This document shows, one piece after another, positions 4,294 through 63,985 of a DNA stretch of 64,000 bases. This stretch comes from Candidatus Lloydbacteria bacterium. GTDB taxonomy: Bacteria > Patescibacteriota > Minisyncoccia > Phycocordibacterales > UBA6899. Both the position numbers and the translations under genes were made by a program. The stretch spans positions 80,230 through 144,229 of the forward strand of contig JAYSTI010000001.1 in NCBI GenBank assembly GCA_043719805.1. Reading direction: 5' to 3'. The stretch's first letter is position 1, and every line of letters starts with the position of its first letter. The notes below the pieces were generated by a model. That model saw nothing but the letters and a program-made list of their open reading frames with translations. It did no database searches and was not told where the DNA came from.

Positions 4294-4355
4294 ATAAAGT
4301 AGGGAGTAATAATATCTTTAGTATATCAAATAGGCCCATTCTGTCCCAGAGAAAC

Positions 4356-4388
4356 AAAAACCACGCGCTTCATGCGCGTGGTTTTTTG
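4356..4388 (-). terminator. intrinsic terminator for the KH-domain gene, near-identical in sequence to the terminator at 1745..1779
   Basis: aaaaaccacgcgcttcatgcgcgtggttttttg, perfect 10-bp stem with flanking A/T runs. Confidence 0.6.
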
Positions 4389-5575: not shown

Positions 5576-7924
5576 TCAATATGGGGACGAGTCAAGGTCT
5601 TTGACGTCAAACGGCTTGGGTATCACGGTCCCGGCCCCCACAATTTCTTTTCCACGAAAATACGTCTTTGCGTAAACAGGTTTTTCAAAGTCACGATATT
5701 TTATTTGAAATGAAAGCTTTCCATCGGCTTTTCTCTGAAGGGAAAGTATTTCTATATTGGTGTCGTTGTCCGGCGCAGTCACTTCGCCGGTGACATTTCC
5801 GGATAGCTTTTCTGCGATACCGCCTTCGATGCCTGTTGAGCAAGACTCGAAATAGATTGGTGCACCGTCTTCAAGAATGAGTGACGACCTATCCGGCCCG
5901 ACGCCCAAAAATTCCGCGTCGATCTTTCCTTCTGCACCCTCTCCCATTCTAGTAGAATCTTTTTCCCCATGACCACGCACACCAATGAAACTCATTTTTC
6001 TTCCGTTTGTCTCAACGATGTAAAGTAGTCGTTGCGCTGCCTCAATCTGACTTCCCGCCTCAGCAACGCGGAGTTTGATTCCTTGCGCCTTTGCCTCTCG
6101 ATGAAGCTCGTCAATTTTTTCGGTCCCGTTGAATACACCGTTTGTGTCATCGAGTGCCGATATTGCCGTACCGTACTCATCTGCGGCCTCCTTGTTTGTC
6201 GCAAGTTGGTCGAGCAATATTTCTTTGCTGTAACGCCCCGGATGATAAATGCCGTACTTGCCGGTGAGCCTCTCCATGCTACCGGGGTGCCCAGTTTCAA
6301 GGTCAACAATCCTTCGTGTATTCTGTGACATCACCCCGTTGCGCGTACCCTGCCAATCCGGCCTCTTCCATAGCTCAAGATAGCGCTCCGGCGGCAGACC
6401 ATACGACTGGAGCAATGCAGTCGAGACAGTTTCTCCACCCTTCCCCATGGCAAGATAAGTCGGGTCTTCGTATATTTTTTTGTCTAACCCATTCTTACCC
6501 TTCTCCTTATCGTTAAACACCGTTGAGAGTAGCCGCAGATCAAAATTCCCTTCGCGAATTTTCTTTACAAGCAGATCTGTCCCCTCCTTGTGCCCCGATT
6601 GCGCCAAGAATGCGAGAAGCTGGACCTGCTCGAACGAATGCATGTCGTTCCGTGCAAAATTTTGTTGGAGCAGTGGACTGAGACCGGCAAAGACTTCGTT
6701 GGCGATGGAAGGAACCGATGCAAGAAATTTTGCGTCGCCATGTTCATCTGCGAGCAACATGGAGTTGTCGACATGCTCATTATAGAGAGACGCCATGTCC
6801 ATGACTGCCCTCGAATTTCTTGACGCAGATGTGCCGATCACCCCCGCTTGCATATCCGTGTGCATTTCTTCAATTGTGTGATGTGCAATAGTGATGGCTT
6901 TTTTCGCATTTTCAACAAATGCATTTAGCGCATCGGAATTCGTACGCACCAACTCTCCCATCTCCTCACTAAAATCAAAGTTCCGAATTGCATTCAATGC
7001 ATTCATTGATTCGAGAAACTGAGGATCATCCATAATCTGCTTACGCAGTTCTTTGGGATATGTGCCGAGCATCGCTTGTATATCAGCAAATGCTTTGTCG
7101 AGAACCGCACTTTCCACTGCAACCGGAACCTTCTTCGAATTATCGTCACGAGGAGCATAAAATGCGCGATAATCTTTGAGTGTAGCAATAGACTGGCTCG
7201 AGCGATGCTCTTCATGCCAACTCTTCCGAATAACCTCACGTGCCTCGTGTTCTTCGTCCGACTTGCGCGCCTCAGGAGTTTCAATGACATCTTCAACAAT
7301 CATGAACCCCGAAATATCATCGGGTCTTACCTCTTCGCGCGGCGCCGATGTTGCAACAGGTTCATTTTCACGCATGGTTTCCGCAACCGCTTCAGGGGTG
7401 ACGCGCTCTTCCGTCACAAAGGTTGGAGTAGTCTTCACCTCGAGTATTGGTGCCGGAGAGACCATTTCTGCTACCACCTCATCTTGTGTCTTCACTTCGG
7501 GGGCCTCTGCATTCGGAATGTTCCCCGCAACGCCGATAATCGCCGCCGCGGCAACAACATTCACGTCACGCCTCATGCTTCCGCTCGCGCGCGAAAGCAC
7601 TTCGGTAATCCTGTTTTTTGCCTCAGTCGCAATTTCGGATATTTGTCTTCCCACATCACGAACCCTCTCCACAAATCCCATGTCCCCCTCCACGCGAGCG
7701 ACCTCCGCCTCCGTTACGCCAAGAGCTTCCGGAATCGAATCGTGTAGCTTCTCTGCCTCGGCCTCGATAGTCACCACCTGCCCCTCGATTGCAGCGACGG
7801 CAGAGAGAGCGGCCGTTTCCGGGTCTTCCGCTCCGACCTCTCTTCTCTCATCCTCTGCCGTCTCGGGCGACAATACTTCCGATGAGGGGATTATTTCTTC
7901 AGTTTCGTTATGTTTTGGTGGCAT
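5576..7924 (-). CDS. large hypothetical protein (about 782 aa; ORF-track start at 7948 is a TTG)
   Basis: Long uninterrupted ORF, acidic N-terminal region, no TM segments, no recognisable catalytic motif; first ATG at 7924. Confidence 0.7.
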   Translation of the reverse strand: MPPKHNETEEIIPSSEVLSPETAEDERREVGAEDPETAALSAVAAIEGQVVTIEAEAEKLHDSIPEALGVTEAEVARVEGDMGFVERVRDVGRQISEIATEAKNRITEVLSRASGSMRRDVNVVAAAAIIGVAGNIPNAEAPEVKTQDEVVAEMVSPAPILEVKTTPTFVTEERVTPEAVAETMRENEPVATSAPREEVRPDDISGFMIVEDVIETPEARKSDEEHEAREVIRKSWHEEHRSSQSIATLKDYRAFYAPRDDNSKKVPVAVESAVLDKAFADIQAMLGTYPKELRKQIMDDPQFLESMNALNAIRNFDFSEEMGELVRTNSDALNAFVENAKKAITIAHHTIEEMHTDMQAGVIGTSASRNSRAVMDMASLYNEHVDNSMLLADEHGDAKFLASVPSIANEVFAGLSPLLQQNFARNDMHSFEQVQLLAFLAQSGHKEGTDLLVKKIREGNFDLRLLSTVFNDKEKGKNGLDKKIYEDPTYLAMGKGGETVSTALLQSYGLPPERYLELWKRPDWQGTRNGVMSQNTRRIVDLETGHPGSMERLTGKYGIYHPGRYSKEILLDQLATNKEAADEYGTAISALDDTNGVFNGTEKIDELHREAKAQGIKLRVAEAGSQIEAAQRLLYIVETNGRKMSFIGVRGHGEKDSTRMGEGAEGKIDAEFLGVGPDRSSLILEDGAPIYFESCSTGIEGGIAEKLSGNVTGEVTAPDNDTNIEILSLQRKADGKLSFQIKYRDFEKPVYAKTYFRGKEIVGAGTVIPKPFDVKDLDSSPY

Positions 7925-8099
7925 GTATTTGTTGTGCAATATTTGCAATGCGTAATTCCGTCAAATGCGCGCGATATTCGTCAAATATTTTATTTTGTTC
8001 TTCATGGAGTGCCTCGATGCGCGAACGTGCATCGCGAAGTATGCGCTCAATCTCACCGAGTGTCTCTTCCGATGAAAGTGATGCGGACATTACTCCCAT
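7908..8099 (-). CDS. small coiled-coil protein (63 aa)
   Basis: ATG at 8099 inside the longer ORF-track entry; heptad-like sequence EIERILRDARSRIEALHEEQNKIFDEYRAHLTELRIANIAQQI; stop overlaps the start of the next gene. Confidence 0.4.
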   Translation of the reverse strand: MGVMSASLSSEETLGEIERILRDARSRIEALHEEQNKIFDEYRAHLTELRIANIAQQIHATKT

Positions 8100-20997: not shown

Positions 20998-21912
20998 CTA
21001 TGCACTCTTGGCCATCAGCGACGTAATCGCCTTGGTGATGATGGGCAGTATGTCGTCGTAGATGTTGAGGTCCAAAAGCTCTGACGCCTTGAACCAGCGC
21101 GCGTCGTCGAGGCCACCCTTCCCTTCTTCGAGCTCGAGCGGTTGAAATGGTGCTTCACCCAAAAAGTAATAGACGTGTTTACGAATCTTGCCCTTCTCGG
21201 GATGCGATGCGATGTACTCATTCTCGCCAAGCTTCTCGACGATGACGATGTCCGCGTTCATCTCTTCTTTGATTTCGCGAATGGTTCCCTGCTCGGCGTC
21301 TTCGCCCTCCTCGATGTGCCCCTTCGAGAGCGTCCAGTGTCCGAAAATGTCATGCACAAGTGCGAGGTGGAGTTCGCCTTTCTCATCGCGGCCGTAGACG
21401 ACTGCGCCACCCAACTGCTCGAGCGGAAGTGTCGCCGGGTCTATCAATGCATTTTTCTTGTCGCGCGATTGGGTCGTTTCATCTTTGCCCGGCTCACCGA
21501 TTTCTTTGTATACCGCACCCAAAACTCCGTTCACGAATTTGCCGCTGTTCTCTCCGCCGAATGTTTTTGCAAGCTCGATTGCTTCGTTGATGGCGACCTT
21601 CGGCGGGACTTCGTTGCGGTCACCAAAAAGCAGCTCATAGAGCCCAATACGCAGAACGTTGCGGTCTACTACCGAGATACGATCAATAGGCCATGCGGGA
21701 GCGGCCTTTTCGATAATGAGGTCAAGTTCTACTTGTTTCGCCAATACGTTCTGCAGGAGGTCTGACATGAACGTGGCGTCATTTAGCCCGGGAGCAAACT
21801 CTTCGATATTCCGAGCAAGTACTTCATCAACGTCTCCAATTTTGTGGGCGTTGAAGTCCCACTCAAAGAGGGATTGCAATACTATGCTTCTGGAAAGGTG
21901 CCTGTTCGCCAT
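20998..21912 (-). CDS. nusB: NusB antitermination factor fused to a C-terminal Nudix hydrolase domain (304 aa)
   Basis: N-terminal 150 aa match NusB (AAPAWPIDRISVVDRNVLRIGLYELLF, NGVLGAV); C-terminal domain carries a Nudix box GHIEEGEDAEQGTIREIKEEMNA; candidate promoter TTGACT-N17-TATACT upstream. Confidence 0.8.
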   Translation of the reverse strand: MANRHLSRSIVLQSLFEWDFNAHKIGDVDEVLARNIEEFAPGLNDATFMSDLLQNVLAKQVELDLIIEKAAPAWPIDRISVVDRNVLRIGLYELLFGDRNEVPPKVAINEAIELAKTFGGENSGKFVNGVLGAVYKEIGEPGKDETTQSRDKKNALIDPATLPLEQLGGAVVYGRDEKGELHLALVHDIFGHWTLSKGHIEEGEDAEQGTIREIKEEMNADIVIVEKLGENEYIASHPEKGKIRKHVYYFLGEAPFQPLELEEGKGGLDDARWFKASELLDLNIYDDILPIITKAITSLMAKSA

Positions 21913-22368: not shown

Positions 22369-22716
22369 ATGCTAGGATTTGTGAGGAAAAACAGTGTGGA
22401 GCATGGTATGACCAAGCAATCTATCGACGAGATGATCCTTGACCCCGGTTTGTCTGACGACGCGGTGCACGACGAGCTCGTGAACGCACCAATGGATGGT
22501 GTTCCTGATGTGCATCGTGACGGCCTCACGCACGACGAATGGATCGAGCAAATGGAAGCATTCCAGGAACAGCTCAATCGGCAAGGGGAGCTGCTCCGAA
22601 AGCATCGCCCGCAAGTTTGGGAGCGCATCGTCAGGGAGACGCTCGAACAACACAATGGTTGTTGCGGCGGATGCGGCGGAGATGAAGGCTGCACCGGAGG
22701 AGGCTGCAAGCATTGA
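22369..22716 (+). CDS. hypothetical small protein with Cys/Gly-rich C-terminal tail (about 115 aa; start uncertain, ATG also at 22408 with a GGAG ribosome-binding site)
   Basis: Acidic helical region followed by HNGCCGGCGGDEGCTGGGCKH; terminator directly downstream; divergent from rpmF. Confidence 0.4.
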   Translation: MLGFVRKNSVEHGMTKQSIDEMILDPGLSDDAVHDELVNAPMDGVPDVHRDGLTHDEWIEQMEAFQEQLNRQGELLRKHRPQVWERIVRETLEQHNGCCGGCGGDEGCTGGGCKH

Positions 22717-22746
22717 AAAAAACCCCGCGTGTGCGGGGTTTTGTTT
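22716..22746. terminator. bidirectional intrinsic terminator
   Basis: aaaaaaaccccgcgtgtgcggggttttgttt. Confidence 0.6.
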
Positions 22747-23487: not shown

Positions 23488-25239
23488 CTAGTTTGCATTC
23501 AACGCGGCGCGTGTGGAGGGACCGACACTGCCCACTTGTTCGAGACCCTTTGATGCTTGGAATTTTTTGACGGCCTCTGCGGTAGTAGCGTCAAACGTAC
23601 TCCCTGCGACTCTGAGGAGGAAGCCGAGTTTCGCGAGTTTCATCTCCATCTGCAAGACCTCGTTGCCGCTTGCACCAAGCGCGAGTGGTAATGTGAAACG
23701 ATAGTTTGCACCCGTGGTCGTGGTAGCGCCGACGCCTCCGACTACTGCATTCAGTTTTGCCCGTGTGCCCGGACCCACATTCCCCACCGACTCGAGACCC
23801 TTGGACGCTTGGAATTTTTTGACGGCCACGGCGGTAAGCGGGCCGAAATTACCATTTGGAATTGCGGTTAAAAATCCTAGTCGAACGAGTAACTGTTGAA
23901 GTGCAAGCACCTCGGTACCGGAAGAACCGATGGCGAGACTTTTTGCAAAGTAGTATCCGGGCGCTTGCGGTGCCATGAGTCCCGCGACCGGAGGAGCTAT
24001 TGGAGCGGCGACCGCACTGACAACAGGAATCGGTACGACGATGACGGCGGCGGGCACAACCTTGATATCCTTGCGAACGGATGCGTAGTTGCCGTAAGTA
24101 TCAGTCGCGTTTATCGCGATGTTGTGAAGGCCGATATCACCGGACTTGGGCGTCCAAACAAAAAGTCCTGATGCACTGATGTTGTCGGTCGTTATCGATG
24201 AGCCACCGGGATAGTTATCCGATGCGGTATATGTCGGAGTTGCAAGCCCCACCAAATTCACATTAAATTTCACAAGTGTCCCGACAGTCACCGTATCACC
24301 GGGAGTAAGCCCGTCGATGGCAAGTGCCGGGTCCTGTACGGTGATTATCTGATTGAGAACGGAAATTGCTCCGGTGCTATCACTGATAACAACATTAATA
24401 TTGTGCACTCCGGTTTGACTCCGAAGCGGTACCCATGAAAATGAGCCTCCGGCAGTCATGCTGTCACTCGTGATGGTGGTTGGGGAATACGTGTCACGCA
24501 CCGTAATTGTCGGCGAAGTAAATCCGGGTGCGGTCACACTAAAAGACACCGTCGCCCCCACCGGAGTGGTCGTCCCGGGAATAAGAGAAACAATCTCAGG
24601 TTTTGGTGCAGGACTCACGGTAATATCCTGAGTTAATTCCGCATAGTGACTTGATCGATCAGAAACATTAATCATCATTTTGTGCGGCCCGATATCTGAG
24701 TATTGCGGCCACCAAGAAAACGCGCCGGAAGAGTTGAGTCTGGAATTTGAAAGCGTACTTCCACCGACACTGTCCCCCAGCCAGAACGTCGGGCTTGTAA
24801 AACCGACGGGGGTTACCTGAAACGTCATTTGCTTTCCCACATACGCGGCAGGACCGTTGACCATTCCCGTAATCGAAATACTCGGCAAAATGACGGTAAT
24901 GGACTGGGCGACCGTCGCAGAATTTCCGGCATTATCCGTAGCGGAAATAGTGATATTATGCACGCCCACATCGCGATTCGTTGGCGTCCAAGAAAAATTT
25001 CCGGAAGCATTGATGTTGGGGGTCAGACTGGTCCCCGCATCGTCTACTGTATACGTCGGCGAAGTCAGGCCTGTTTGAACGACCGAGAATGTTACCGGGG
25101 AATTTATCGATACCGTCGTACCCGGAGAAAGCGACTGGATAGTTAGCGATCCGGCGGCCTCTACAAATGACAGCGGCGTGAGTAGAGCGAATAAAAAAGA
25201 AATAAAATAAAAGGAGCTACTGCGTAGTGCGTGTATCAT
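23488..25239 (-). CDS. secreted protein with five tandem Ig-like repeats and two C-terminal peptidoglycan-binding (PG_binding_1) domains
   Basis: Signal peptide; about 95-aa repeats (LSPGTTVSINSPVTFSVVQTG...FSWTP...GVHNI); two copies of LALGASGNEVLQMEMKLAKLGFL...KKFQASKGLE; DNA-level internal tandem repeats. Confidence 0.8.
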   Translation of the reverse strand: MIHALRSSSFYFISFLFALLTPLSFVEAAGSLTIQSLSPGTTVSINSPVTFSVVQTGLTSPTYTVDDAGTSLTPNINASGNFSWTPTNRDVGVHNITISATDNAGNSATVAQSITVILPSISITGMVNGPAAYVGKQMTFQVTPVGFTSPTFWLGDSVGGSTLSNSRLNSSGAFSWWPQYSDIGPHKMMINVSDRSSHYAELTQDITVSPAPKPEIVSLIPGTTTPVGATVSFSVTAPGFTSPTITVRDTYSPTTITSDSMTAGGSFSWVPLRSQTGVHNINVVISDSTGAISVLNQIITVQDPALAIDGLTPGDTVTVGTLVKFNVNLVGLATPTYTASDNYPGGSSITTDNISASGLFVWTPKSGDIGLHNIAINATDTYGNYASVRKDIKVVPAAVIVVPIPVVSAVAAPIAPPVAGLMAPQAPGYYFAKSLAIGSSGTEVLALQQLLVRLGFLTAIPNGNFGPLTAVAVKKFQASKGLESVGNVGPGTRAKLNAVVGGVGATTTTGANYRFTLPLALGASGNEVLQMEMKLAKLGFLLRVAGSTFDATTAEAVKKFQASKGLEQVGSVGPSTRAALNAN

Positions 25240-27953: not shown

Positions 27954-28065
27954 TCCAGATTTCCTTTTCAATTCAGAGAACACACGCAATTACCCTTGCG
28001 TTATGGGTCGCCACTTTCGTAGCATTTTCCGAGTGCACACTACCATCATCGACAATGAGTGTCAA
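27954..28065 (-). promoter_or_regulatory. promoter TTGACA-N17-TAGTGT plus conserved about 77-nt structured 5' leader (copy 1)
   Basis: -35 at 28060..28065, -10 at 28037..28042; leader CGGAAAAUGCUACGAAAGUGGCGACCCAUAACGCAAGGGUAAUUGCGU... contains a GNRA-capped hairpin and an ACGCAA/UUGCGU hairpin and is about 85% identical to 29161..29236. Confidence 0.5.
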
Positions 28066-28082
28066 TAAAAAATGGCAAAGAA

Positions 28083-28126
28083 AAAAGAGCGACCTTGCGG
28101 TCGCTCATTGCACAAACTGTGCGAAC
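28083..28126 (-). terminator. conserved terminator module, copy 2
   Basis: Identical hairpin gagcgaccgcaaggtcgctc plus T6, directly after the lipoprotein stop codon. Confidence 0.6.
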
Positions 28127-28732
28127 TTACTTCTTGGCCAGCGGATCTGCCGGCGCCGTCTTGGCAGGAGCAGAACGATCCGGCTCGTTCACGGCACCTT
28201 TCTGGGGCCACGGGAAAGCGCTGACCTTCTCCTCGGCATACACCGCTTCCGCCTTGTTGTTGATCGGACTGATGCAAATGATGCCCGTACCTTCGGCAGT
28301 CGACGGCGGGAAGACCCCGTTGGGTTCGGCTTGGGGCAAACGTGTCACTCCCCAAGTCCAGCCATGTTCCGAGTCAGCGCCATAGCGAGGGTCCCGCACG
28401 CGGTAACGCTGCATGGATTCGCCGGCGGAGTACTGCGTGCCCCCCGGAATCGGATAGCCGATGGAATCGCAGAAATAAATCCATTGACCCTGCATGTTCT
28501 TCGTGTAGGTGTAGGTCAGGAGATTCGCCTTGTCGCGCTGCTCGTACCAGTACCGGACACCACGCATGTCGCGGTAGTTGACGATGTCCGGCATGCCGAC
28601 CTGTTGCGCGCCCTCCAGGTTGATCGCCGCCTGCTGGTCACGCTGTGCATCGTTGGCAGTGGCCGGCGGAGGCTTTTGGCAGCCCGCGAGTGCGAGGCCG
28701 ACGAACAAGAGGGCAATCAGTTGGGTTTTCAT
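28127..28732 (-). CDS. lipoprotein (201 aa), function unknown
   Basis: Signal peptide with lipobox LALAGC; Pro/Gly-rich mature region. Confidence 0.65.
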   Translation of the reverse strand: MKTQLIALLFVGLALAGCQKPPPATANDAQRDQQAAINLEGAQQVGMPDIVNYRDMRGVRYWYEQRDKANLLTYTYTKNMQGQWIYFCDSIGYPIPGGTQYSAGESMQRYRVRDPRYGADSEHGWTWGVTRLPQAEPNGVFPPSTAEGTGIICISPINNKAEAVYAEEKVSAFPWPQKGAVNEPDRSAPAKTAPADPLAKK

Positions 28733-28770
28733 CTTTGTTTCCTTCAGGTGATGGTGGGATGGAAGCGGGC

Positions 28771-29160
28771 TTACTGGCCAGCGCCGGGCGAGCAGTCGAA
28801 GGCTTGGCCTTGATGCTGACGGAGACAGACCATGAAAGCACGGAGGTCGCGCGGCAGACTCTCGTCCGGGTACTCGCCGTATTGCTGGATGATCACGGAA
28901 CCGAGGCCGGCACGACGGTCGGGCGGGGCGGTGATGTAGTTCATCTGCGCATCGCGGATGTTCTTGATCGTGCCCGCGTTGTACGACCTCGATTGCTCGA
29001 AGGTCTCGCGACGGACCTGCTCTTCTTGAGGTGCGAACACCTTTTCCTTGGCCAGGCTGTTGGCACGGGAGAACCAGCCGAGGCTCGTCGAGACGACGAC
29101 GAGGGCGAGGAGGGCAGCGAGAGCGGCGGCGATGGCGGCGAGAACGTGGGAAGTTTTCAT
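28771..29160 (-). CDS. membrane-anchored hypothetical protein (129 aa)
   Basis: N-terminal Ala/Leu-rich TM helix; first gene downstream of leader copy 2. Confidence 0.6.
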   Translation of the reverse strand: MKTSHVLAAIAAALAALLALVVVSTSLGWFSRANSLAKEKVFAPQEEQVRRETFEQSRSYNAGTIKNIRDAQMNYITAPPDRRAGLGSVIIQQYGEYPDESLPRDLRAFMVCLRQHQGQAFDCSPGAGQ

Positions 29161-35890: not shown

Positions 35891-35935
35891 AGTCCACCGG
35901 CAGAAATTCTGCCTCGGTGGACTTTCTGTTTTATT
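35891..35935 (+). terminator. intrinsic terminator (nested palindrome)
   Basis: agtccaccgGCAGAAaTTCTGCCtcggtggact plus T-rich tail. Confidence 0.55.
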
Positions 35936-35941
35936 GAACGA

Positions 35942-35970
35942 AAATTGACCTCATTTGTTTCGACGAGTAT
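35942..35970 (+). promoter_or_regulatory. thrS promoter TTGACC-N17-TATACT
   Basis: Near-consensus hexamers with 17-nt spacing, about 200 nt upstream of thrS. Confidence 0.45.
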
Positions 35971-35976
35971 ACTCAA

Positions 35977-36145
35977 AACACTTGAGATTGCTTTGGCCAC
36001 CAACCAAAGACTACGTGGTGAAAACCCTAATCAAGTATGAATAAGTGTTCTCGGGAATACCCGGGAGAATCGAGGTGGAACCGCGGCCAGATCGCCCTCG
36101 TAAGCATATGACGGAGTCATATTCTTACGAGGGTGATTTTTTTTA
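35977..36145 (+). promoter_or_regulatory. T-box-like riboswitch leader of thrS (stem I with ACC in its apical loop, GA/kink-turn-like elements, T-box sequence GAGGTGGAACCGCGG, and a terminator)
   Basis: T-box consensus AGGGUGGNACCGCG matched at 36070..36085; terminator ccctcgtaag...cttacgaggg plus T8 at 36094..36143, in which the CCCUC can alternatively pair to form an antiterminator. Confidence 0.55.
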
Positions 36146-36168: not shown

Positions 36169-37911
36169 ATGGACAACGCGGAAAAACTGCATAATACGAG
36201 ACATACATTTGCCCACCTCCTTGCGATGGCGGCTATCGAATTCGACCCCGAGGTGAAGCTCGGTATCGGACCCGTCACGGAAAGCGGCTTCTACTACGAC
36301 TTCGCATTTTCGAAGACCCCAACCCCGGAAGACCTGAAAGGCTTCGAAAAATCAATGCGCAAATTCATCAATCAAAAACTTGCGATGAACGGCCGTGAGA
36401 TTACAAAAGCTGAGGGGGAAAAACTTTTCGCGGGACAACCATTGAAGCTTGAGCTCTTGGAACAATATGCAAAAGAAGACAAAACACTCACCGCATATAC
36501 TTTGGGCAATTTCACCGACCTCTGTAAGGGCGGCCACGTTGAGAGTACAGGTGAAGTAGACGCCGGTGCATTCTCACTCATTCGCATCGCCGGCGCGTAC
36601 TGGCGCGGAGATGAAAAGAATCAAATGCTCACGCGCATCTACGGATACGCCTTCGATACAAAGGACGACCTTCTCGAATACGAGACCATGCTCGTGGAAG
36701 CAAAGAAGCGCGACCACAAGAAGCTCGGCAAAGAGTTGGACCTTTTCACATTCTCCGACCTAGTCGGCCCCGGACTTCCCCTCTTTACTCCGAAAGGAAC
36801 CCACTTGCGCAACACGCTCGATGAATACGTGTGGCAGCTACGTCGCGCACGCGGATATGAGAAAGTCGAGATTCCACACATCACCAAAAAGGAGCTCTAC
36901 ATCACTAGTGGACATTGGGACAAATTCAAGGACGAGCTCTTCCGCATCACGACGCGCGAGGGTCACGAATTCGCGATGAAGCCGATGAATTGTCCGCACC
37001 ACACGCAAATTTATGACCGTAAGGCTTGGAGCTACCGCGAACTACCGCAACGATACGCAAACTCAACTGCTTGCTACCGCGATGAGCAATCCGGAGAACT
37101 CTCAGGGCTTTCACGCGTCCGCGCATTCACGCAAGACGATGCGCACGTGTTTTGCCGCATGTCGCAGGCGAAGGAGGAGTTTCTGAAGATATGGGATATA
37201 GTGCAAATATTCTACAAAACATTCGGATTCGACCTACGCGTCCGCATCTCAAAACACGACCCGGCCAAACCGGAAAACTATCTCGGGGGCAAGGAAAATT
37301 GGGCAATCGCCGAGCAGATGCTCGAGGATATTGCGAAAGAAAAAAATGCTAATTCATTCGAGGGGGTCGGCGAGGCCGCTTTTTACGGACCAAAGCTCGA
37401 CTTCATGGCAAAGGACGCCATCGGTCGCGAGTGGCAAGTCGCAACGATTCAACTCGACATGAACATGCCTGAGCGATTTAACCTCGTGTGCACCAACGAG
37501 AAGGGCGAAAAAGAACGCATTGTCATGATTCATGCCGCCATCATGGGCTCGATTGACCGATTCCTCTCGATACTTATCGAACACACCGGCGGTAACTTCC
37601 CCCTCTGGCTCTCACCGATGCAAGTAGTCATCGTCCCCATCAGCGACGCACACCAGGCATTTGCACAAGAGGTGGCGGCAAAGCTCCGCGAGCATGATAT
37701 TCGCGTGTCGCTCATCCTCGATAGTGAATCACTCGGCAAGAAAATTCGGGATGCAAAAGTAGGCAAGATTCCCTACACCCTCGTCATCGGCGATGCCGAA
37801 GTCGCAGGTCGCACCGTGACACTTGAGTCCCGTGAGGAAGGCAAGGTCGGAGAGCTCAGCCTCGACAATCTCCTCGCGCGTTTTTCGGAAGAAATTGCTT
37901 CAAAAAAATAA
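36169..37911 (+). CDS. thrS: threonyl-tRNA synthetase (short form, about 580 aa)
   Basis: Class II aaRS motifs, TGS/second additional domain region, anticodon-binding domain; ORF-track GTG start at 36133 lies in the leader terminator T-run. Confidence 0.95.
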   Translation: MDNAEKLHNTRHTFAHLLAMAAIEFDPEVKLGIGPVTESGFYYDFAFSKTPTPEDLKGFEKSMRKFINQKLAMNGREITKAEGEKLFAGQPLKLELLEQYAKEDKTLTAYTLGNFTDLCKGGHVESTGEVDAGAFSLIRIAGAYWRGDEKNQMLTRIYGYAFDTKDDLLEYETMLVEAKKRDHKKLGKELDLFTFSDLVGPGLPLFTPKGTHLRNTLDEYVWQLRRARGYEKVEIPHITKKELYITSGHWDKFKDELFRITTREGHEFAMKPMNCPHHTQIYDRKAWSYRELPQRYANSTACYRDEQSGELSGLSRVRAFTQDDAHVFCRMSQAKEEFLKIWDIVQIFYKTFGFDLRVRISKHDPAKPENYLGGKENWAIAEQMLEDIAKEKNANSFEGVGEAAFYGPKLDFMAKDAIGREWQVATIQLDMNMPERFNLVCTNEKGEKERIVMIHAAIMGSIDRFLSILIEHTGGNFPLWLSPMQVVIVPISDAHQAFAQEVAAKLREHDIRVSLILDSESLGKKIRDAKVGKIPYTLVIGDAEVAGRTVTLESREEGKVGELSLDNLLARFSEEIASKK

Positions 37912-41365: not shown

Positions 41366-43288
41366 CTATCGCACCTGCCAGTCAGTTTCTCTGTTGCACG
41401 CGAGGGTAACGCGCTCCATGATGGCGCCCACTTCATCGTCGGTGAGCGTGCGCTCGAACGATTGGAATACCATGCGGTAACCATAGGAAACGCGATTCTC
41501 GTCGGGCTTCCGGAATTTATCAAATTGCGCAAATCGCACGACCAACTCCCCTGCTTCTTTTTTTAATAGCGTTTCAATATATTCCTCTGTCACCTCCTGT
41601 GGAACAAAGATGGCAATGTCACGAACGATGAATGGATATGCGGAGAGTGTTTTGTAACGCATTTCTATTTCCTCGCCGAGCAGCGCATCATAGTGCTCCG
41701 GCTCGGGAAGACCTTTAATACTTGCGTCAAAATCAATTTCTATAACAAGTCCGTCCGCTTCATCAAGCTCACTTACGGAAACCATCGTTGCGCCGATTGC
41801 ACTCTCGAGTGCGGGCAACAGTGCTCGCAATTCTTCTTTTGCCGCTACTATTTTTTTCTTCCCGGATGTGCGTACGCCGAGGGCGAGCGACATTTTTTCA
41901 CCTTCGGCGGGAAAAATATTTCCAAATTCAAATATATGCACGTCGTGTATTCCGATAAGCGGGGCATTCAAAAAATTCACCGCAAGGGAACGCCAGAGAC
42001 CGGTCGCGAGTATTCTCCGCATAAATGGTCTGTCATTTCCTACGGGGTGCAGCACTCCGATTTCCCCCTCTCCCGGTCGGGCAAATGAATACGTGAATAC
42101 TTCAGAAAATCCTTGTTCTACCAAAAATTTTCGCACCTTATTCGCGTAATACATACGCTTATGCGGAACACCTTTTCGCAGCAACGTCGGAAGTAGCGGC
42201 ACAATACTTTCGTAGCCGACATGTCGTCCAACCTCTTCAATCATGTCCTCTTTGATGCGCAAATCAAGACGTTCCTCCGGCGCGGTCACAATAAACACTT
42301 CGCCACTTTTCTCGTACTTGTGGCCTGCGCGAGTGAGAACTTTGGAGAGGTCATCCGCTGAGAGAGTAAGTCCGAGCAAGTGGTTCACGTCGTTGACAGA
42401 TACGGAAACAAACAAAAGCTCTTCAGGGGAAGGGTAGGTGTCTGTCGTCTGCCCGACCGCGACACCCTCACCGCCATAGAGTGCGAGAAGCGAGAGTGCG
42501 AGATCACAACCCTCCTTTGCGAACGCGGACGTCATGCCATTTTCATAGCGCTTTGATGCGTCGGTCTTGATGTTATGTTTTTGGGAAGTTTTCCGCGTCA
42601 GGGTCGGATCAAAATTTGCACATTCAAGAATGATACTTTTTGTTTCAGCAGTGACTTCGGCCTTCTTGCCGCCCTTAATTCCCGCAAGCGCGAGCACGCC
42701 CTCATCGTCCGCAATGACCAACTCCGTTCCGAGGAACGTAAGGGCCTTGCTGTCAAGCGTCGTCATCATCTCCCCCGCACGCGCCAAGCGCACAGTGATT
42801 CCTCCTGCAACTTTTTCCGCATCAAATGCATGCAATGGTTGCCCGATATCAAAAAGGACGAAGTTCGTGATATCAACGATGTTGTTGATACTCCTACCAC
42901 CAGCAGCTTCAACCTTTGCCGCCATCTCTTTTGGTGTCGCTCCGATGGTGACATTGTCGACTCGAGTCGCGATATAGCGCTGGCAGAGCTTCGCATCATC
43001 GATGGTTACTCGAACAAGCGGAACCCCCGCATCTCGCTGCACCTCGTCGTATTTCCGTTCTTTGCGCGACACTCCAAGCAGTGCGCCAATCTCCCGCGCC
43101 ATACCACGATGACTGAGTGCATCGTGCGCACGGTCCGGCAATACCTTGATTTCTAGTATCGTGTCGCCACCCTTCTCCTCTATCTCCTCAATTTCGAATG
43201 CCCGAAGAGTCACCTCACGCGCGATGGTCGTAATGTCGGGTAGCGGAGTCGCTAAATGCTCCTGAAGCCAGTTGAGAGAGTATTTCAT
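41366..43288 (-). CDS. pheT: phenylalanyl-tRNA synthetase beta subunit (short, 640 aa)
   Basis: B3/B4, B5 and catalytic-like domains; begins MKYSLNWLQEHL. Confidence 0.9.
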   Translation of the reverse strand: MKYSLNWLQEHLATPLPDITTIAREVTLRAFEIEEIEEKGGDTILEIKVLPDRAHDALSHRGMAREIGALLGVSRKERKYDEVQRDAGVPLVRVTIDDAKLCQRYIATRVDNVTIGATPKEMAAKVEAAGGRSINNIVDITNFVLFDIGQPLHAFDAEKVAGGITVRLARAGEMMTTLDSKALTFLGTELVIADDEGVLALAGIKGGKKAEVTAETKSIILECANFDPTLTRKTSQKHNIKTDASKRYENGMTSAFAKEGCDLALSLLALYGGEGVAVGQTTDTYPSPEELLFVSVSVNDVNHLLGLTLSADDLSKVLTRAGHKYEKSGEVFIVTAPEERLDLRIKEDMIEEVGRHVGYESIVPLLPTLLRKGVPHKRMYYANKVRKFLVEQGFSEVFTYSFARPGEGEIGVLHPVGNDRPFMRRILATGLWRSLAVNFLNAPLIGIHDVHIFEFGNIFPAEGEKMSLALGVRTSGKKKIVAAKEELRALLPALESAIGATMVSVSELDEADGLVIEIDFDASIKGLPEPEHYDALLGEEIEMRYKTLSAYPFIVRDIAIFVPQEVTEEYIETLLKKEAGELVVRFAQFDKFRKPDENRVSYGYRMVFQSFERTLTDDEVGAIMERVTLACNRETDWQVR

Positions 43289-43717: not shown

Positions 43718-44581
43718 TTAGAATTGATTCACGACACGCAGGTCGCCGCTATACAAAAGTCGAATGTCATCAATGCCCCACTTCAACATGGCGAGTCGGT
43801 CGATGCCGCCGCCGAAAGCAAAGCCCTGATATATGGAGCTATCGACTCCGCAGTTTTCAAGTACGTTAGGATGCACCATGCCGGATCCCATTATTTCTAT
43901 CCAACCTGACTGCTTACAAACTCCGCATCCTTTTCCTTCACACTTAAAACATTGCATGTCTATTTCCGCCGAGGGTTCAGTGAACGGGAAAAAAGAAGCA
44001 CGCAAACGCACTTCAATCTCTTTTCCGAATAACTCCGTAAACAGATGGCGAAGCACCCCCTTCAAATGTGCGAGCGAAATATCTTTTCCGATGAGGAGAC
44101 CTTCGACTTGATGAAACTGTGCTTCATGCGTCGCATCCGTCGCCTCGTTGCGAAACGCCTTGCCCGGGACGACCATCGCGAGCAGGTCGTTCTTGTACCC
44201 TCCCTTCGCCCACATCTGCATTGTGCGAATTTGTACTGGGGAAGTGTGCGTACGGAGAAGGCGGCGTTCGATATCCCCCGCCCCAGGTTTGAGCCCTAAA
44301 CCAGAAGACTGGTCGGTTAAAGCAGTTTGCTGCTCGCCCGATTCGCCTGGCGAATTTAGGGGCGAACCGCTTCCGGGCGGTTTTAGCCAAAACGTATCCT
44401 GCATATCGCGTGACGGATGGTCCTTTGGAACATTGAGCGCATCGAAATTATAGAACTCGGTCTCAATCTCCGGTCCGTCTGCAACATCAAAACCCATCTC
44501 GGTCATGATGACGCAAATACGGTCGATCATTATTGTGAGAGGGTGCAAGTGCCCAGTGATGCTTTTTTCCTCGGCGGTCAT
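43718..44581 (-). CDS. pheS: phenylalanyl-tRNA synthetase alpha subunit (short, 287 aa)
   Basis: Class II motifs (FHQVEGLLIG, FFPFTEPSAEIDMQC) and the CxxC...CxxC insertion. Confidence 0.9.
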   Translation of the reverse strand: MTAEEKSITGHLHPLTIMIDRICVIMTEMGFDVADGPEIETEFYNFDALNVPKDHPSRDMQDTFWLKPPGSGSPLNSPGESGEQQTALTDQSSGLGLKPGAGDIERRLLRTHTSPVQIRTMQMWAKGGYKNDLLAMVVPGKAFRNEATDATHEAQFHQVEGLLIGKDISLAHLKGVLRHLFTELFGKEIEVRLRASFFPFTEPSAEIDMQCFKCEGKGCGVCKQSGWIEIMGSGMVHPNVLENCGVDSSIYQGFAFGGGIDRLAMLKWGIDDIRLLYSGDLRVVNQF

Positions 44582-44887
44582 TGCCCTATTGTATAGAAAA
44601 AGCCCCTCGTTGCAAACGAGAGTCGAAATTACAATGAAGAACAGGATTACTGCTGGTCTGCCTGTGCTGTAGCCTCATTTACTTGTTGTACTTTTTCCGC
44701 AACAAGCCCTCTCTCGTACTTCACGTAAAAATAGAACGCAATTGTGAGCACAAAAAGGGTGAGGGCAAAATAGCGTACAACGAGGCAAATCGTGCATCGT
44801 TTTTTTTCTTCAGGGTCGGGTGTTACTTGATTGGTGTCTATATTCATATTGACAAAAACATTCTTCTTCGGACGAAGTGTTTTAGGG

Positions 44888-44960
44888 AGCCGCCTCCCAG
44901 ATTCGAACTGGGGACCTTCACTTTACAAAAGTGTTGCTCTACCAACTGAGCTAAGGCGGC
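44888..44960 (-). tRNA. tRNA-Thr (anticodon UGU), no encoded CCA
   Basis: GCCGCCU acceptor stem, D-arm GCUCAGUUGGUAGAGC, anticodon loop UUUGUAA, T-arm CCCAGUUCGAAUCUGGG; hairpin plus T-run directly downstream. Confidence 0.8.
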
Positions 44961-55034: not shown

Positions 55035-56342
55035 TTAGCGATTGCCCGATGCAAGTACTGCGCGTGTCATTGGTCCGAAAAATCCCGTCGCAGGAAGAGC
55101 GCGCTCTTTTTGAAGCTTAATAAGCGCGGCCTTCGTGAGCTGTCCGAAATATCCGGTTGCGTTACTCGCGAGATACCCTCTTCCGATGAGTAACTCCTGA
55201 AGTCGCGTCACATCTTCTCCTCGCGAACCCACAGTCAGATTGCGAGAAAATGAAGACACGAGTATCGGCATCATCCCTCTGGGCTTGTCGTCCAAAGGGA
55301 CACTCGTCACGGTAAGTGTACCGACTCCGGCAGTGACACTTGGTGTCGCAGTGCCAACCCGCACGCGCACAGTACTATCGATGGGTCCGCCCTTCCCAGT
55401 ACACGCTATTGCATATACTTGATCAGCACCGAGATTACTCATGACGCGTGAACCCGAGAGGTCGAGCGCGCCGGACCAGTCTCCGCTTGCAGTACATGAA
55501 TCAACCTTTGCTGCTGTCCAATTGAGCGTAACGGAACCTTTCGCCTCAATACTGTCGCTTGATATTGAGAATGCGAGCGTCGGACGAATCGCAAGGGGAA
55601 CCGTAGGCTTGCCGGCATTGCCCTCATTGTAGAGTGAGGTCACCTCCTCCATGGTGAGTGCGCGGCTGTAAAGACGCAATTCATCAATCATTCCGTTAAA
55701 TGAACCAAGAAGTGGGTTCGCCTCCGACATTCCGATACGATAGGAAAGCACTTGATTGGTGAAGTCGGGAAACCATCGTCCAAGATTTTCTCCGGCAACG
55801 CCTATCTCCTCACCGTTCACATACAATTTGTACGAAACAGTATTGGCCGTAAGAACGAGATTGTACCACTCGTTTCTATTCAGTATGGTCATCCCCTGCA
55901 CCTTGCGGTCCGACCCTCCGGGGTCAGTACGAAATTGCAGCTGGGGACGGCCCTCGTAGTCAACAGACAGAAGCACATAAACGTTATTGTCGCTCGTAGA
56001 CTTTCCAGAAAAAATTACGTTGCGACTGTTCAACTGCTCCATCCGAAACCATACAGATAGCGTGCCTTGGCTTCCGGTCAAAAAACTATTTGGGAGTGCG
56101 ACACCCTCACCGTCCAATCCGTCCATGCCGAGTGCAGTACCAATCTTCCCCCCGGCCCAGCCGAGACCCGTGGAGCTTCCCACCAAGACGCCATTTTGCC
56201 CACCAATGTCGCGGACACTTTTCCCGGTCGCATCATCAAACGACCAAAAATTGGTGTAATCACTCGTTGCAGCGAACGCCGGTGTTGCGACAAAAAAGAA
56301 CGCTACTGCCACACACGCGCCAAGCTGTCTTATTGTTTTCAT
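55035..56342 (-). CDS. secreted protein with LamG/concanavalin-like domain and C-terminal peptidoglycan-binding domain
   Basis: Signal peptide; DELRLYSRALTMEEVTSLY (LamG-like); C-terminal LTVGSRGEDVTRLQELLIGRGYL...FGPMT (PG_binding_1). Confidence 0.75.
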   Translation of the reverse strand: MKTIRQLGACVAVAFFFVATPAFAATSDYTNFWSFDDATGKSVRDIGGQNGVLVGSSTGLGWAGGKIGTALGMDGLDGEGVALPNSFLTGSQGTLSVWFRMEQLNSRNVIFSGKSTSDNNVYVLLSVDYEGRPQLQFRTDPGGSDRKVQGMTILNRNEWYNLVLTANTVSYKLYVNGEEIGVAGENLGRWFPDFTNQVLSYRIGMSEANPLLGSFNGMIDELRLYSRALTMEEVTSLYNEGNAGKPTVPLAIRPTLAFSISSDSIEAKGSVTLNWTAAKVDSCTASGDWSGALDLSGSRVMSNLGADQVYAIACTGKGGPIDSTVRVRVGTATPSVTAGVGTLTVTSVPLDDKPRGMMPILVSSFSRNLTVGSRGEDVTRLQELLIGRGYLASNATGYFGQLTKAALIKLQKERALPATGFFGPMTRAVLASGNR

Positions 56343-57424: not shown

Positions 57425-57556
57425 ATGGCAAAAGTATAACATTCCCGATTGACGATTGCGAGAATGCTTGTAAGGTGATAAATGCTTCACAATTCCGTGA
57501 GGTGCTGTACCTTTTCAACCCTTCATCTAAGGCTATATAAAGCCAGGAGGTTCTCA

Positions 57557-58498
57557 ATGTCTCAATCGTCACACGTCACGCCACTCCCCGAACATGAGGC
57601 GCGCGAGCTCATCCAAAAATGCTACTTGCATGGCCGCAAGGTCGGATATTACCTCGGCCCAAATCGTTTCGCGGATAGACTTTTTGGAACAGTCGTCGGG
57701 ACTGGAGAAAAACTCGTCTCTCGCGGTGGCCGCAACCACAAGCTGGCCGGCCGCTACCTCGACTTCACCAAGTTGCGTATTGCCCCCACAAAGGGTGGGC
57801 CCGAAGTACTTTGCAGCATCAACAACGGAACTGTTGGACCAATGTTCCCGTTCGACGGCGCAGATGCGGCATGGATGACCGAAGAGGAAATGTTGGGCAT
57901 GGCGCGAATCCTCATTTATTCCGGACCTCTTCCTGAAACTCCGTTTTGGGAAGGCGATTGCGTCAAACTTAAGAGCATGAGTCGTAGGGCCGACCCCAAA
58001 GGTTGGACCGTGAAGGAAATCGATTATGATTCCCCGCCCAACACTGATGACTATGTATACCGGATTACCAGTACGCGCCCTGAACTGCGCCAGGAGTATT
58101 GGGGCGCTGGACTCGAACTCCTCGCTCGCGGCAATCTCTGGAAGATGGAGCATGGCGAGCCGACGAGCTTCGAGAGCATCGAAGACGAGGCAGCGTTCTA
58201 TAAAACTCTCGAAATGTCACGAAACGTCACAGACGTCTACGCCACTGAACAAATGAGGCTTGCATCTTCAACCGAGTTTAACAATGCGAAGGAAGAGAGA
58301 AGTTTTTACGCGTCCATGACAGCAACATTCTCTGAGGCAATTGCGGCGCTTAGGAGCGGCAAAGCAGACGAGATGAAGCTCAAGGACAAAACAAAAATGA
58401 CCTATGCGGTCATCAAGTACGACAACGAGGAATTCGGGTCACGCATGCGTGCACACACGCTCGCAAAATTCGGCCTCGGAGAAGGCGTTTCGGCGTAA
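57557..58498 (+). CDS. hypothetical protein (313 aa)
   Basis: AGGAGG ribosome-binding site before the ATG at 57557; terminator downstream. Confidence 0.6.
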   Translation: MSQSSHVTPLPEHEARELIQKCYLHGRKVGYYLGPNRFADRLFGTVVGTGEKLVSRGGRNHKLAGRYLDFTKLRIAPTKGGPEVLCSINNGTVGPMFPFDGADAAWMTEEEMLGMARILIYSGPLPETPFWEGDCVKLKSMSRRADPKGWTVKEIDYDSPPNTDDYVYRITSTRPELRQEYWGAGLELLARGNLWKMEHGEPTSFESIEDEAAFYKTLEMSRNVTDVYATEQMRLASSTEFNNAKEERSFYASMTATFSEAIAALRSGKADEMKLKDKTKMTYAVIKYDNEEFGSRMRAHTLAKFGLGEGVSA

Positions 58499-62596: not shown

Positions 62597-63985
62597 TCAG
62601 ATGTCAGCAAGATTCATGTCAGAACCTTTTTTTCGTTTCATAATAAAACCAATGATGGAGAATGAGAATCCCAAGACACCAATGACGACAGCAATCATTG
62701 CGTAGAGCGACGCACCTCGCCAGCTTCGGATATCCGTCACCCCCGACTCCGCTGGGACTCCACTGACTGATACGGCGGCAGACTCTTTCAGGAATGCAAG
62801 CGGTTCCGATTTTGCGATGATGCGTCCACCCACGTCAGTGATTGCACCATAAACATGATGCGTGCCGTCAAGAAGATTCTTGTCGAGAATGTATGCCCAC
62901 GCGCCCCGAGCGTCTGCCTTTACCGTCACCACAATGGGGTCTGAAAAAATATACACGGTGACAAAGCTATTCGCCGGTGCCAGACCTTCGATTTTCAATT
63001 TCTTTATTGTTGTTGAGCCAGACTCACTCGTGCCGAGTTCCGCAACGATGACATCGCGAACAGTAAGAAGTGTCGATTCCAATATTCCCGCGATTATCGG
63101 ATTCTCATGTCGGACGGATTCATCGCTAAATATTTCCAATGCATCGACGCTACTTCCGACCGAAGACGTCGCAACGAGGAGCCTCTCCCCTCCTCGCGGA
63201 TTTGTACGGGCAAGCAATTCTGCACCATCAGGGAAGCCGTCGCCGTCGGTGTCTACTCTATCCGGGTCGGTTCCGTAGATATTCACTTCATCATAGTCCG
63301 TCACACCGTCACCGTCCGAGTCGATGAACACTCTTGCGCCAACTCGTTCGGTAAAAATCTTCATCTCCTCTTCACGGGAACGGGTGATACTTGCCTTCAT
63401 GGCAAGGAGCGCATCCGATCTACCCATATCATTTCGGACCAATGCCTTCGTGCACACTTCGGCATGTGCCATATCCGCGCAATACTGCCTAAACTCTTCG
63501 GGGCTACGTATCAACTCCGGTATGTCTTTGGAGCGGCGATCTGTGTCGCCGAGTAACAGAGCGATGCGCGCGGAGTCAACGCCGTCGAGAAGCGACTGCC
63601 CTCCCGAAAAAAGTGTGGCGCGTGAGTGCCGCACGTAGGTTATGCATTGATTATTTACGTTAGGAAGATTATTGCAATAGATGTGGCATTCTTCTTCATT
63701 TGTGCATGAGGCCGGATCGGAAACTCGGTCGATGATTGCCCTTTTTTCCTCCGGAGAAACACGTACGCTGGTCGAAAGTGCGCCTCCACTATAAGTCGGG
63801 GTTGCAAGTCCGATGTTGTCCTTCATTGCGGCAACAACGTGCCGCACCTCCACACTCATTCGCTCCGACAATATTTCTTTTTTATTCATCCCCACCGCAG
63901 TAGCAAATATTTTATATACTCCGCCCGGAGATCTTCCCATGTCATATTCGTATGTCCAAACATCCACTCCATCCTTTGATAACAA
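62597..63985 (-). CDS. large extracytoplasmic protein with Asp-rich Ca-binding-like repeats and a C-terminal TM anchor; 5' end possibly beyond the window
   Basis: DSDGDGVTDYDEVNIYGTDPDRVDTDGDGFPDG motifs; C-terminal AMIAVVIGVLGFSFSIIGFIMKRKK; ends 4 nt before the kinase start. Confidence 0.6.
   Translation of the reverse strand: MLSKDGVDVWTYEYDMGRSPGGVYKIFATAVGMNKKEILSERMSVEVRHVVAAMKDNIGLATPTYSGGALSTSVRVSPEEKRAIIDRVSDPASCTNEEECHIYCNNLPNVNNQCITYVRHSRATLFSGGQSLLDGVDSARIALLLGDTDRRSKDIPELIRSPEEFRQYCADMAHAEVCTKALVRNDMGRSDALLAMKASITRSREEEMKIFTERVGARVFIDSDGDGVTDYDEVNIYGTDPDRVDTDGDGFPDGAELLARTNPRGGERLLVATSSVGSSVDALEIFSDESVRHENPIIAGILESTLLTVRDVIVAELGTSESGSTTIKKLKIEGLAPANSFVTVYIFSDPIVVTVKADARGAWAYILDKNLLDGTHHVYGAITDVGGRIIAKSEPLAFLKESAAVSVSGVPAESGVTDIRSWRGASLYAMIAVVIGVLGFSFSIIGFIMKRKKGSDMNLADI

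Follow-up and report, generated by a model that had tools for sequence, protein, structure and literature searches.

The window analyzed here, a stretch of 64,000 nucleotides (nt; contig JAYSTI010000001.1) of a Candidatus Lloydbacteria bacterium, is assigned to a Parcubacteria/Paceibacteria genome of the Candidate Phyla Radiation (CPR), and our subject is the leader of its threonyl-tRNA synthetase gene, thrS. Leader and promoter together span 35945-36144 on the forward strand (Table 1). The open reading frame (ORF) that precedes them, of 154 amino acids (aa), stops at 35867 and is followed by a terminator hairpin of its own, which an automated terminator scan did not call; because of this hairpin, the thrS leader can be regarded as a separate transcription unit. 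The thrS product matches the Pfam families tRNA-synt_2b (2.6e-44), HGTP_anticodon (1.3e-21) and tRNA_SAD (2.3e-12), and the nearest relatives of this threonyl-tRNA synthetase (ThrRS) come from metagenome-assembled genomes (MAGs) of the Parcubacteria group, among them GW2011_GWA2_47_7 (86% identity) and a Lloydbacteria MAG (73%). Our results suggest, with high probability, that the leader is a T-box transcription attenuator of thrS that responds to tRNA-Thr through a reduced decoding domain.

Table 1. Coordinates of the thrS leader elements and of neighboring features in the window
Feature	Position	Strand	Basis and remarks
Probable terminator of upstream 154-aa ORF	~35891-35935	+	Strong hairpin AAGUCCACCG...CGGUGGACUU, then U-rich run
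Sigma70-like promoter	35945-35973	+	TTGACC 35945-35950, 17-nt spacer, TATACT 35968-35973; 10/12 matches
P1, 5' strand ACUUGA	35980-35985	+	Pairs with 36031-36036; closes decoding domain; 4-5 pairs with compensatory changes
Junction GAUUG	35986-35990	+	Consensus GA[G/A]AUUG including last two P1 bases; columns invariant or nearly so
P2 (ultrashort Stem I)	35991-36009	+	CUUUGG 35991-35996 / CCAAAG 36004-36009, 6 bp; apical loop CCACCAA 35997-36003
Candidate specifier ACC (Thr) and conserved purine A36002	35999-36002	+	Codon 35999-36001; agrees with thrS
P4 mini-hairpin GGU-GAAA-ACC	36017-36026	+	Placed at Stem IIA in the Rfam T-box alignment
Junction CUAA	36027-36030	+	Rfam aligns it to 3' part of F-box (CCGUUA); AAUC invariant in family alignment
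P1, 3' strand UCAAGU	36031-36036	+	Covariation
RAG purine element AAG	36043-36045	+	Just 5' of stem III; read from sequence; A-rich R-A-G in relatives
Stem III UUCUCGGG-AAUA-CCCGGGAG	36048-36067	+	Rfam alignment, folding
Discriminator/antiterminator	36071-36100	+	A1 36071-36075/36096-36100, bulge UGGAACC 36076-36082, A2 36083-36086/36092-36095
T-box sequence GAGGUGGAACCGCGG	36072-36086	+	Sequence
Intrinsic terminator	36092-36144	+	Hairpin 36092-36136, -29.7 kcal/mol, then U8 36137-36144
thrS, threonyl-tRNA synthetase, 580 aa	36169-37911	+	Pfam; gene predicted to be regulated by the leader; ATG 36169
pheT	41366-43288	-	
pheS	43718-44581	-	pheS and pheT start after a short promoter region
tRNA-Thr(UGU)	44886-44960	-	Discriminator U73, CCA not encoded; sole tRNA gene in window

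An initial annotation of this DNA had proposed a T-box sequence and an intrinsic terminator with a competing antiterminator upstream of thrS, and structure prediction bears this out; apart from the kink-turn-like elements, the features it listed are present at the positions it gave. The antiterminator is the minimum free energy (MFE) fold of 35978-36103, in which the 3' arm of the terminator is omitted. The terminator uses the 3' strands of A2 and A1 as its 5' arm (36092-36100 is shared), so that the two folds are mutually exclusive, and the end of the U8 tract lies 25 nt upstream of the thrS start codon. For the leader as a whole, the folding energy is -64 kcal/mol (z = -6.3), and none of 200 shuffles was as good. 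The T-box sequence of the window, GAGGUGGAACCGCG (36072-36085), departs from the conserved form, AGGGUGGNACCGCG, at two positions, both of which lie in A1 and covary with their partners. The core UGGAACC[G/A]CG, in which UGGA is invariant, is present in 18/18 members of the family described below, as is an equivalent terminator hairpin. Sixteen of these hairpins scored between -28 and -33 kcal/mol, while the antiterminators of the family, taken alone, lie between -8 and -15 kcal/mol; the other two (L020 and L042) were recognized by inspection and have interrupted U runs. The terminator hairpin lies 25 to 155 nt from the start codon across members, and the start region is not covered. The automated scan called no terminator in the leader, which the stem and loop sizes it accepts probably explain; folding gives a strong one. 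A purine element, whose role in canonical T-boxes has been described (PMC11297988), stands just before stem III. The latter is found in about half of the family and is missing in L013, L027, L045, L048, L055, L059 and L078, where a linker of ~20 nt ending in ACAAAG reduces the span of P1 through the antiterminator to ~105 nt, compared with 121 nt in the window.

The 5' part of the leader forms a compact domain closed by P1 (i.e., the decoding domain), which measures 57 nt in the window (35980-36036) and 55-76 nt across the family, in the order P1, GA(G/A)AUUG, P2, a variable P3, P4, CUAA and P1'. The short stem-loop with ACC exposed in its apical loop, as the initial annotation had described it, corresponds to P2. 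In the window and 17 related loci, 99% of P2 cells are paired and 5/6 pairs show compensatory changes. The apical loop follows the 7-nt consensus YYACCAR, with ACC at loop positions 3-5; ACC is invariant in 18/18 sequences and is followed by A in 17 and by G in 1. The loop (C/U-U-ACC-A-A) can be read as having the shape of a tRNA anticodon loop (Y32-U33-NNN-R37-A38). An alternative specifier, ACU at 36010-36012, was rejected, as it is unconserved among relatives. At the position of Stem II, P3 varies from 0 to 12 bp across the family and has no conserved internal loop; the window has 7 unpaired nt instead. A hairpin adjoins CUAA in 17/18 members, with stems that differ (GG/CC, CC/GG, GUC/GAC, GUU/AAC, GAUC/GAUC and others) and varied loops (GAAA, UUCG, CUCC and others). 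No conserved downstream complement to these P4 loops is evident across the family, and the nucleotides that follow CUAA pair instead with the start of the domain (i.e., P1); a IIB-type pairing for P4 therefore seems unlikely.

Certain hallmarks of larger T-boxes were looked for in the same region. The initial annotation had reported GA-rich kink-turn-like elements; motif inspection found no canonical kink-turn (K-turn) signature (3-nt bulge, tandem G.A, opposite-strand GA beside the closing helix), the strands beside P1 reading CUAA-UC on the 3' side, without a GA next to the closing helix, and GA-GAUUG on the 5' side. Nor is an elbow platform (AG bulge plus distal loop, forming a double T-loop), a Stem II S-turn or a IIA/B pseudoknot evident in the leader. 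The junction strands GAUUG and CUAA could pair in an alternative register (AUUG with C(U)AAU, one U bulged), which some single-sequence folds choose. In L003 (2792-2869), the sole member with a change in the junction, both strands carry a U-to-C substitution together (GAGAUUG to GAGAUCG and CUAA to CCAA); this single event hints that the two positions interact.

The strongest support for the decoding domain and the switch comes from comparison. Among 80 related thrS loci, taken from species-representative genomes, 17 carry UGGAACC[G/A]CG at 90-190 nt upstream of thrS, all with the same 5' domain; the family has at least 18 genomes, the window included, and its ThrRS proteins are only 61-86% identical to that of the window. 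Its distribution is patchy, and roughly one in four of the related thrS loci has a leader. Leaders occur in the lineage closest to the window, among Lloydbacteria and in several Paceibacteria MAGs, but none was seen at the Moranbacteria, Nomurabacteria or Yanofskybacteria loci examined. From an unguided MAFFT alignment, RNAalifold recovered P1, P2, A1 and A2 de novo, with compensatory changes in 17/22 pairs. In counts of pairs, 5/6 pairs of A1 show compensatory change, and A1 and A2 are each 94% paired. Standard pairs fill 94.4% of the cells, compared with 31-43% in slid controls, and the covariation score is 0.674, compared with 0.06-0.135; neither value was reached by any of 500 shuffles. 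P1 and P2 tested alone gave the same outcome as the full set of helices. A covariance model built on 14 relatives, from which the window and its two closest relatives were left out, gave 73.3 bits for the window (E about 3e-14), the sole match in 64 kb, and 60 bits for a locus outside the seed (L050). In 619 kb of related loci we found no other T-box cores. One apparent second core in L048, on the reverse strand, lies within gyrB, where it encodes the peptide AGGTA, and was dismissed as a chance match.

The sigma70-like promoter that had been proposed upstream of thrS was also recovered. A -10-like hexamer lies 3-9 nt 5' of the first P1 pair in 17/17 family members tested and agrees at 5/6 or more positions in 13/17, compared with 3% at random positions (P about 4e-17), while about half of the members have a TTGAC -35 element at a spacing of 16-18 nt. 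Because the -10 box lies directly upstream of P1, the RNA should begin at P1, at a predicted start of about 35979-35981 that falls on the first P1 base, which leaves no space for a long Stem I.

From these features we infer tRNA binding, discrimination of the charging state and a regulatory outcome, as follows. Transcription would start at ~35980, and the first 57 nt would fold into a small junction in which P1 closes the domain, P2 displays ACC in its 7-nt loop and P4 adjoins CUAA. The anticodon of tRNA-Thr, predicted to be GGU, would pair with ACC. If that tRNA is uncharged, its U73-C-C-A end would pair with UGGA (36076-36079) in the bulge and so stabilize an antiterminator that is otherwise weak (about -8 kcal/mol), allowing RNA polymerase to read through into thrS. 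With an aminoacylated tRNA, or with none, the much stronger terminator (36092-36136 plus U8) would form and stop transcription 25 nt before the ATG. Termination would thus be the default state, and transcription of thrS is probably turned on when tRNA-Thr is uncharged. The display of the codon in a loop resembling an anticodon loop (i.e., loop-loop pairing) may offset the missing elbow platform and S-turn.

Several observations weigh against this interpretation. Truncated Stem I elements without a Stem II S-turn bind tRNA barely detectably, and transcriptional T-boxes generally need the elbow platform of a long Stem I for fast tRNA capture (PMC7583486); these requirements count against a tRNA-sensing leader here because neither S-turn nor elbow platform was detectable. 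The predicted ligand has not come to light at the loci: no tRNA-Thr(GGU) gene lies in the window, and ARAGORN found no tRNA-Thr in 60 related loci. The specifier gains no support from codon-gene covariation, as a pattern scan of metagenomes that kept the scaffold but asked for a non-Thr codon (any base except C at position 2) returned three stretches and no members. Two of these (L082 and L083) are coding sequence, and the third (L081) is a T-box of the usual kind, with a long Stem I, in front of what is probably leuS. The P1/P2/P4 scaffold appears, on the loci scanned, to be dedicated to thrS. The window also has a competing fold. Its decoding domain has an MFE of -12.2 kcal/mol in an alternative structure that buries part of the specifier, while the comparative fold, at -10.8 kcal/mol, is predicted to have ~15% occupancy. 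In the alternative (35996-36019), GCCAC, a segment containing bases 1 and 2 of the specifier, pairs with a GUGGU that overlaps P4 and is 1.4 kcal/mol better than P2 plus P4. This pairing is weaker in L002 and is a lineage-specific feature; it could be a folding trap or an added regulatory layer. The single-sequence MFE of the window, in which P2 does not appear, is to us a caveat that falls short of a refutation, given the covariation, the formation of P2 first during transcription and its dominance among the folds of 13/17 relatives.

The last of these points concerns the Rfam T-box model RF00230, the scan that the initial annotation had put forward as a check. In a permissive scan, the leader scored 28.2 bits (35951-36102) against a gathering score of 93, with an E value of 1.7e-4 in a search of 451 nt and of 0.024 in the whole window. 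At gathering thresholds, Rfam returned only the tRNA in the window and detected 0/19 family loci. The alignment has high posterior probability over stem III, the T-box sequence and the antiterminator and deletes ~75 Stem I positions, and the score is low because Stem I is almost wholly absent. The earlier proviso, that lack of a significant covariance-model hit would speak against a T-box, applies only to the subthreshold RF00230 match; the family model gave a significant one. The decisive evidence lies in the family-specific model and the covariation rather than in RF00230, and these comparative data, drawn from 18 sequences, support the proposal of a T-box leader for thrS.

The identity of the tRNA is the point at which an alternative fares best, albeit still poorly. 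An ACC specifier predicts tRNA-Thr(GGU) as the ligand. Across 23 long ORFs of the window, Thr is encoded most often by ACC (216/696; ACC and ACU together make up 49%), and this usage leads us to expect a tRNA-Thr(GGU) elsewhere in the genome. The initial annotation had noted that the tRNA-Thr nearby carries UGU and not GGU. The anticodon is indeed UGU, and this is no contradiction because the gene encodes another isoacceptor, GGU is expected elsewhere and U73 fits UGGA. That U73 is the base that would pair with the invariant A of UGGA, although the discriminator of the UGU isoacceptor is the only one visible. We predict that tRNA-Thr(UGU) is not the primary ligand and that it shows the discriminator base of tRNA-Thr in this organism. 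It is also conceivable that the ligand is tRNA-Thr(UGU) itself, encoded 9 kb away, or all tRNA-Thr isoacceptors, which would require a tolerated C.U wobble mismatch. The matching U73 would suit this, and there is a precedent in a glyS T-box with a GGC specifier that is reported to respond to both GCC and UCC tRNA-Gly (PMC4574755). We consider it improbable, as ACC is invariant, with the third-position C that is typical of T-boxes, the share of ACC and ACU codons calls for a GGU tRNA, and a duplex of 2 bp plus a mismatch would presumably be very weak without elbow or S-turn support.

A leader operated by protein has a smaller chance still. ThrRS might bind P2 as a tRNA mimic and so regulate itself, as at thrS of Escherichia coli, since P2 matches an anticodon arm in its dimensions and loop consensus (Y-U-NNN-R-A), or another protein might replace the missing RNA elements, and the activity of the Bacillus subtilis thrS T-box in vitro did require a protein fraction (PMC7583486). 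The loop of P2, however, holds the codon ACC and not a Thr anticodon (GGU, UGU or CGU), which is the complement of what a tRNA-Thr mimic would carry, and a full discriminator with UGGA and a terminator explains regulation without ThrRS binding. A helper protein needed besides the RNA switch is possible. We think it highly improbable, too, that the leader is a decaying, nonfunctional T-box remnant in which the terminator alone is active or read-through is constitutive. An Rfam score far under threshold, the presence of leaders at only a fraction of related loci and the competing fold in the window would fit such decay. Yet compensatory substitutions keep P1, P2, P4, A1 and A2 across ThrRS proteins as divergent as those of this family, ACC, UGGA and the junction motifs are invariant and the overlap of terminator and antiterminator is kept in 18/18; because helices, motifs and overlap are preserved, purifying selection on the whole switch is indicated. 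It is extremely unlikely that control is translational, through a sequestered ribosome-binding site, or that thrS is governed by a Thr leader-peptide attenuator: translational control is the only kind with which an ultrashort Stem I has been associated until now, but every member has an alternative hairpin followed by a U run, ending 25-155 nt before the start codon, and the leader peptide was rejected, as no leader reading frame contains Thr codons. An ordinary class I T-box with an overlooked long Stem I (K-turn, internal specifier loop and distal elbow platform), onto which the Rfam model's poor alignment of the Stem I base to 35951-35975 might be thought to point, has next to no probability, as those positions are the promoter, the 17/17 placement of the -10 box has the RNA starting at P1, the alignment drops the Stem I positions and no Stem I of ~90 nt fits between P1 and the T-box at the distances given above (L045 and L078 being among the ~105-nt leaders).

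How, then, does a predicted tRNA-Thr-responsive attenuator of this kind relate to known systems? With class I T-boxes (RF00230; B. subtilis thrS, tyrS and glyQS) the leader shares RAG, stem III, the T-box sequence, a two-helix antiterminator, a UGGNACC bulge and a mutually exclusive terminator, as well as a specifier followed by a purine, ACC for Thr and an aminoacyl-tRNA synthetase gene as the target. Their long Stem I is missing from it, as are the internal specifier loop, its S-turn and the AG bulge/distal-loop platform, and no K-turn, Stem II S-turn or IIA/B pseudoknot complementarity is evident. With the ultrashort ileS T-boxes of Actinobacteria (Mycobacterium and Nocardia), for which our comparison rests on reviews and later papers, it shares a short Stem I, a specifier in the terminal loop, the absence of an elbow platform and the discriminator core. 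Those T-boxes are described as translational, by means of a Shine-Dalgarno sequestrator, and exclusive to ileS and tRNA-Ile (10.1101/2023.02.28.530422); most are said to be actinobacterial, to carry a K-turn within Stem I and to depend on a long Stem II S-turn and on the IIA/B pseudoknot (PMC10651847, PMC7583486). The leader studied here differs in having a terminator, thrS as its gene, ACC rather than AUC as its specifier and a CPR host. In the ileS class the Stem II S-turn docks on the codon-anticodon duplex, whereas our leader has no conserved element between P2 and P4; P1 encloses the whole decoding domain in the thrS family, and P4 has no evident pseudoknot partner.

The architecture had initially been called ultrashort and glyQS-like. 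Stem I is indeed very short, but a short Stem I with a terminal-loop specifier is what marks out the ultrashort ileS class of Actinobacteria (10.1101/2023.02.28.530422, PMC7583486), so that the glyQS label is wrong, and even the ileS class differs. T-boxes of glyQS are likewise small, transcriptional and devoid of a Stem II domain; they keep a full long Stem I with elbow platform and a GC-rich GGC/GCC duplex, and our leader has neither. The thrS operator of Escherichia coli is translational, with ThrRS binding to anticodon-arm mimics in its own mRNA. A comparison shows the same gene and a leader hairpin shaped like an anticodon arm in both cases, the differences being that the loop in the window is a codon and is joined to a T-box discriminator and terminator, as would befit RNA-RNA sensing and not protein binding. 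Judged by its predicted discriminator, specifier and switch features, the leader is a member of the T-box family, and it departs from class I in Stem I and apparently in Stem II, and from the translational ileS class (i.e., class II) in its predicted mode of control and its gene.

A second group of leaders was seen upstream of thrS in L032 (~2800-2990), L036 (~2820-2990), L058 (~2740-2930) and L022 (~2520-2720). This sister subfamily has a CUACCAA apical loop on a simpler stem, RAG and stem III, an A1-like CUGGG/CCCAG, and a terminator with a U run. Its bulge reads ACGGAAWC in place of UGGNACC, so that A76 of the tRNA would face C instead of U. The stem in L032 has a K-turn-like CAAAC|GAU|GA ... 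GGA|GUUUG, and L036 scored only 16-21 bits with the main-family model. In a Harrisonbacteria MAG (L028, ~2880-2970), a possible degenerate T-box upstream of thrS reads ...CCCGGGUGGUUUGUGCC...CGCCCGAG and is followed by a terminator and U run; neither family model matched this candidate.

Among the other features of the window, ThrRS itself begins straight in the editing region, with an HxxxH-like RHTFAHLL at residues 11-18; over 36169-37911 (forward strand), Pfam recognized the SAD, class II core and anticodon-binding domains and matched no N-terminal TGS domain. The acceptor stem of tRNA-Thr(UGU) runs into U-CCC, and 3' of the gene are an ORF of ~66 codons that looks hydrophobic by eye and then a terminator-like hairpin (44582-44960, reverse strand). 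No T-box was found upstream of pheS in the window. A single ORF of 304 aa (20998-21912, reverse strand) joins an N-terminal NusB domain (residues 7-136) to a C-terminal NUDIX hydrolase domain (residues 171-284). The large proteins encoded on the reverse strand at 1813-4293, 23488-25239, 55035-56342 and 62597-63985 have domains of the surface type only (TSP3 repeats, Ig-like, laminin-G/ConA-like lectin and peptidoglycan-binding), and the large ORFs at 5576-7948, 28055-28813 and 57482-58498 had no Pfam match. Large proteins of the surface type or without Pfam matches agree with assignment to the CPR, as such genomes are understood. Permissive Rfam matches to rli60, snoRNA, miRNA, Leu_leader and RsmY families were discounted as being at chance level; the subthreshold Leu_leader (4301-4387, forward strand; 27.7 bits, E 0.14) and RsmY (22655-22742, forward strand; 22.1 bits, E 0.32) matches are probably of this kind.

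As to novelty, we lean, without great confidence, towards the view that the thrS leaders of Parcubacteria form an undescribed natural class of minimal T-boxes, which would sense tRNA cotranscriptionally through two contacts only (i.e., a codon in a 7-nt loop within a P1-closed junction and the NCCA end) and would do without an elbow platform, K-turn, S-turn or IIA/B pseudoknot. Our literature search found no paper linking T-boxes with CPR, Patescibacteria or Parcubacteria; subscription journals were largely outside its coverage, and an earlier description is possible. If real, such a class would contradict the current view of both the need for an elbow contact in fast capture and the need for an S-turn in binding by a truncated Stem I, and as a natural exception it would make the kinetic argument for the elbow platform directly testable. 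The sister subfamily would go further, with CGGA for UGGN in the bulge. An ultrashort Stem I with a terminal-loop specifier would here be joined to transcription termination, two traits that the field treats as separate. At ~105-125 nt, these leaders would rank among the smallest natural T-boxes and would be attractive for structural work and for the engineering of tRNA-responsive switches.

T-boxes are concentrated in Terrabacteria (i.e., Firmicutes, Actinobacteria, Chloroflexi and Deinococcus-Thermus), and their occurrence in the CPR would agree with proposals that place the CPR near Chloroflexota. The leader described here would extend T-box regulation to the CPR/Patescibacteria, where annotation at Rfam thresholds has missed it. 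We infer that a reduced-genome, probably symbiotic bacterium, whose pheST genes in the window are without such control, may still monitor the charging of tRNA-Thr in order to set the level of its ThrRS.

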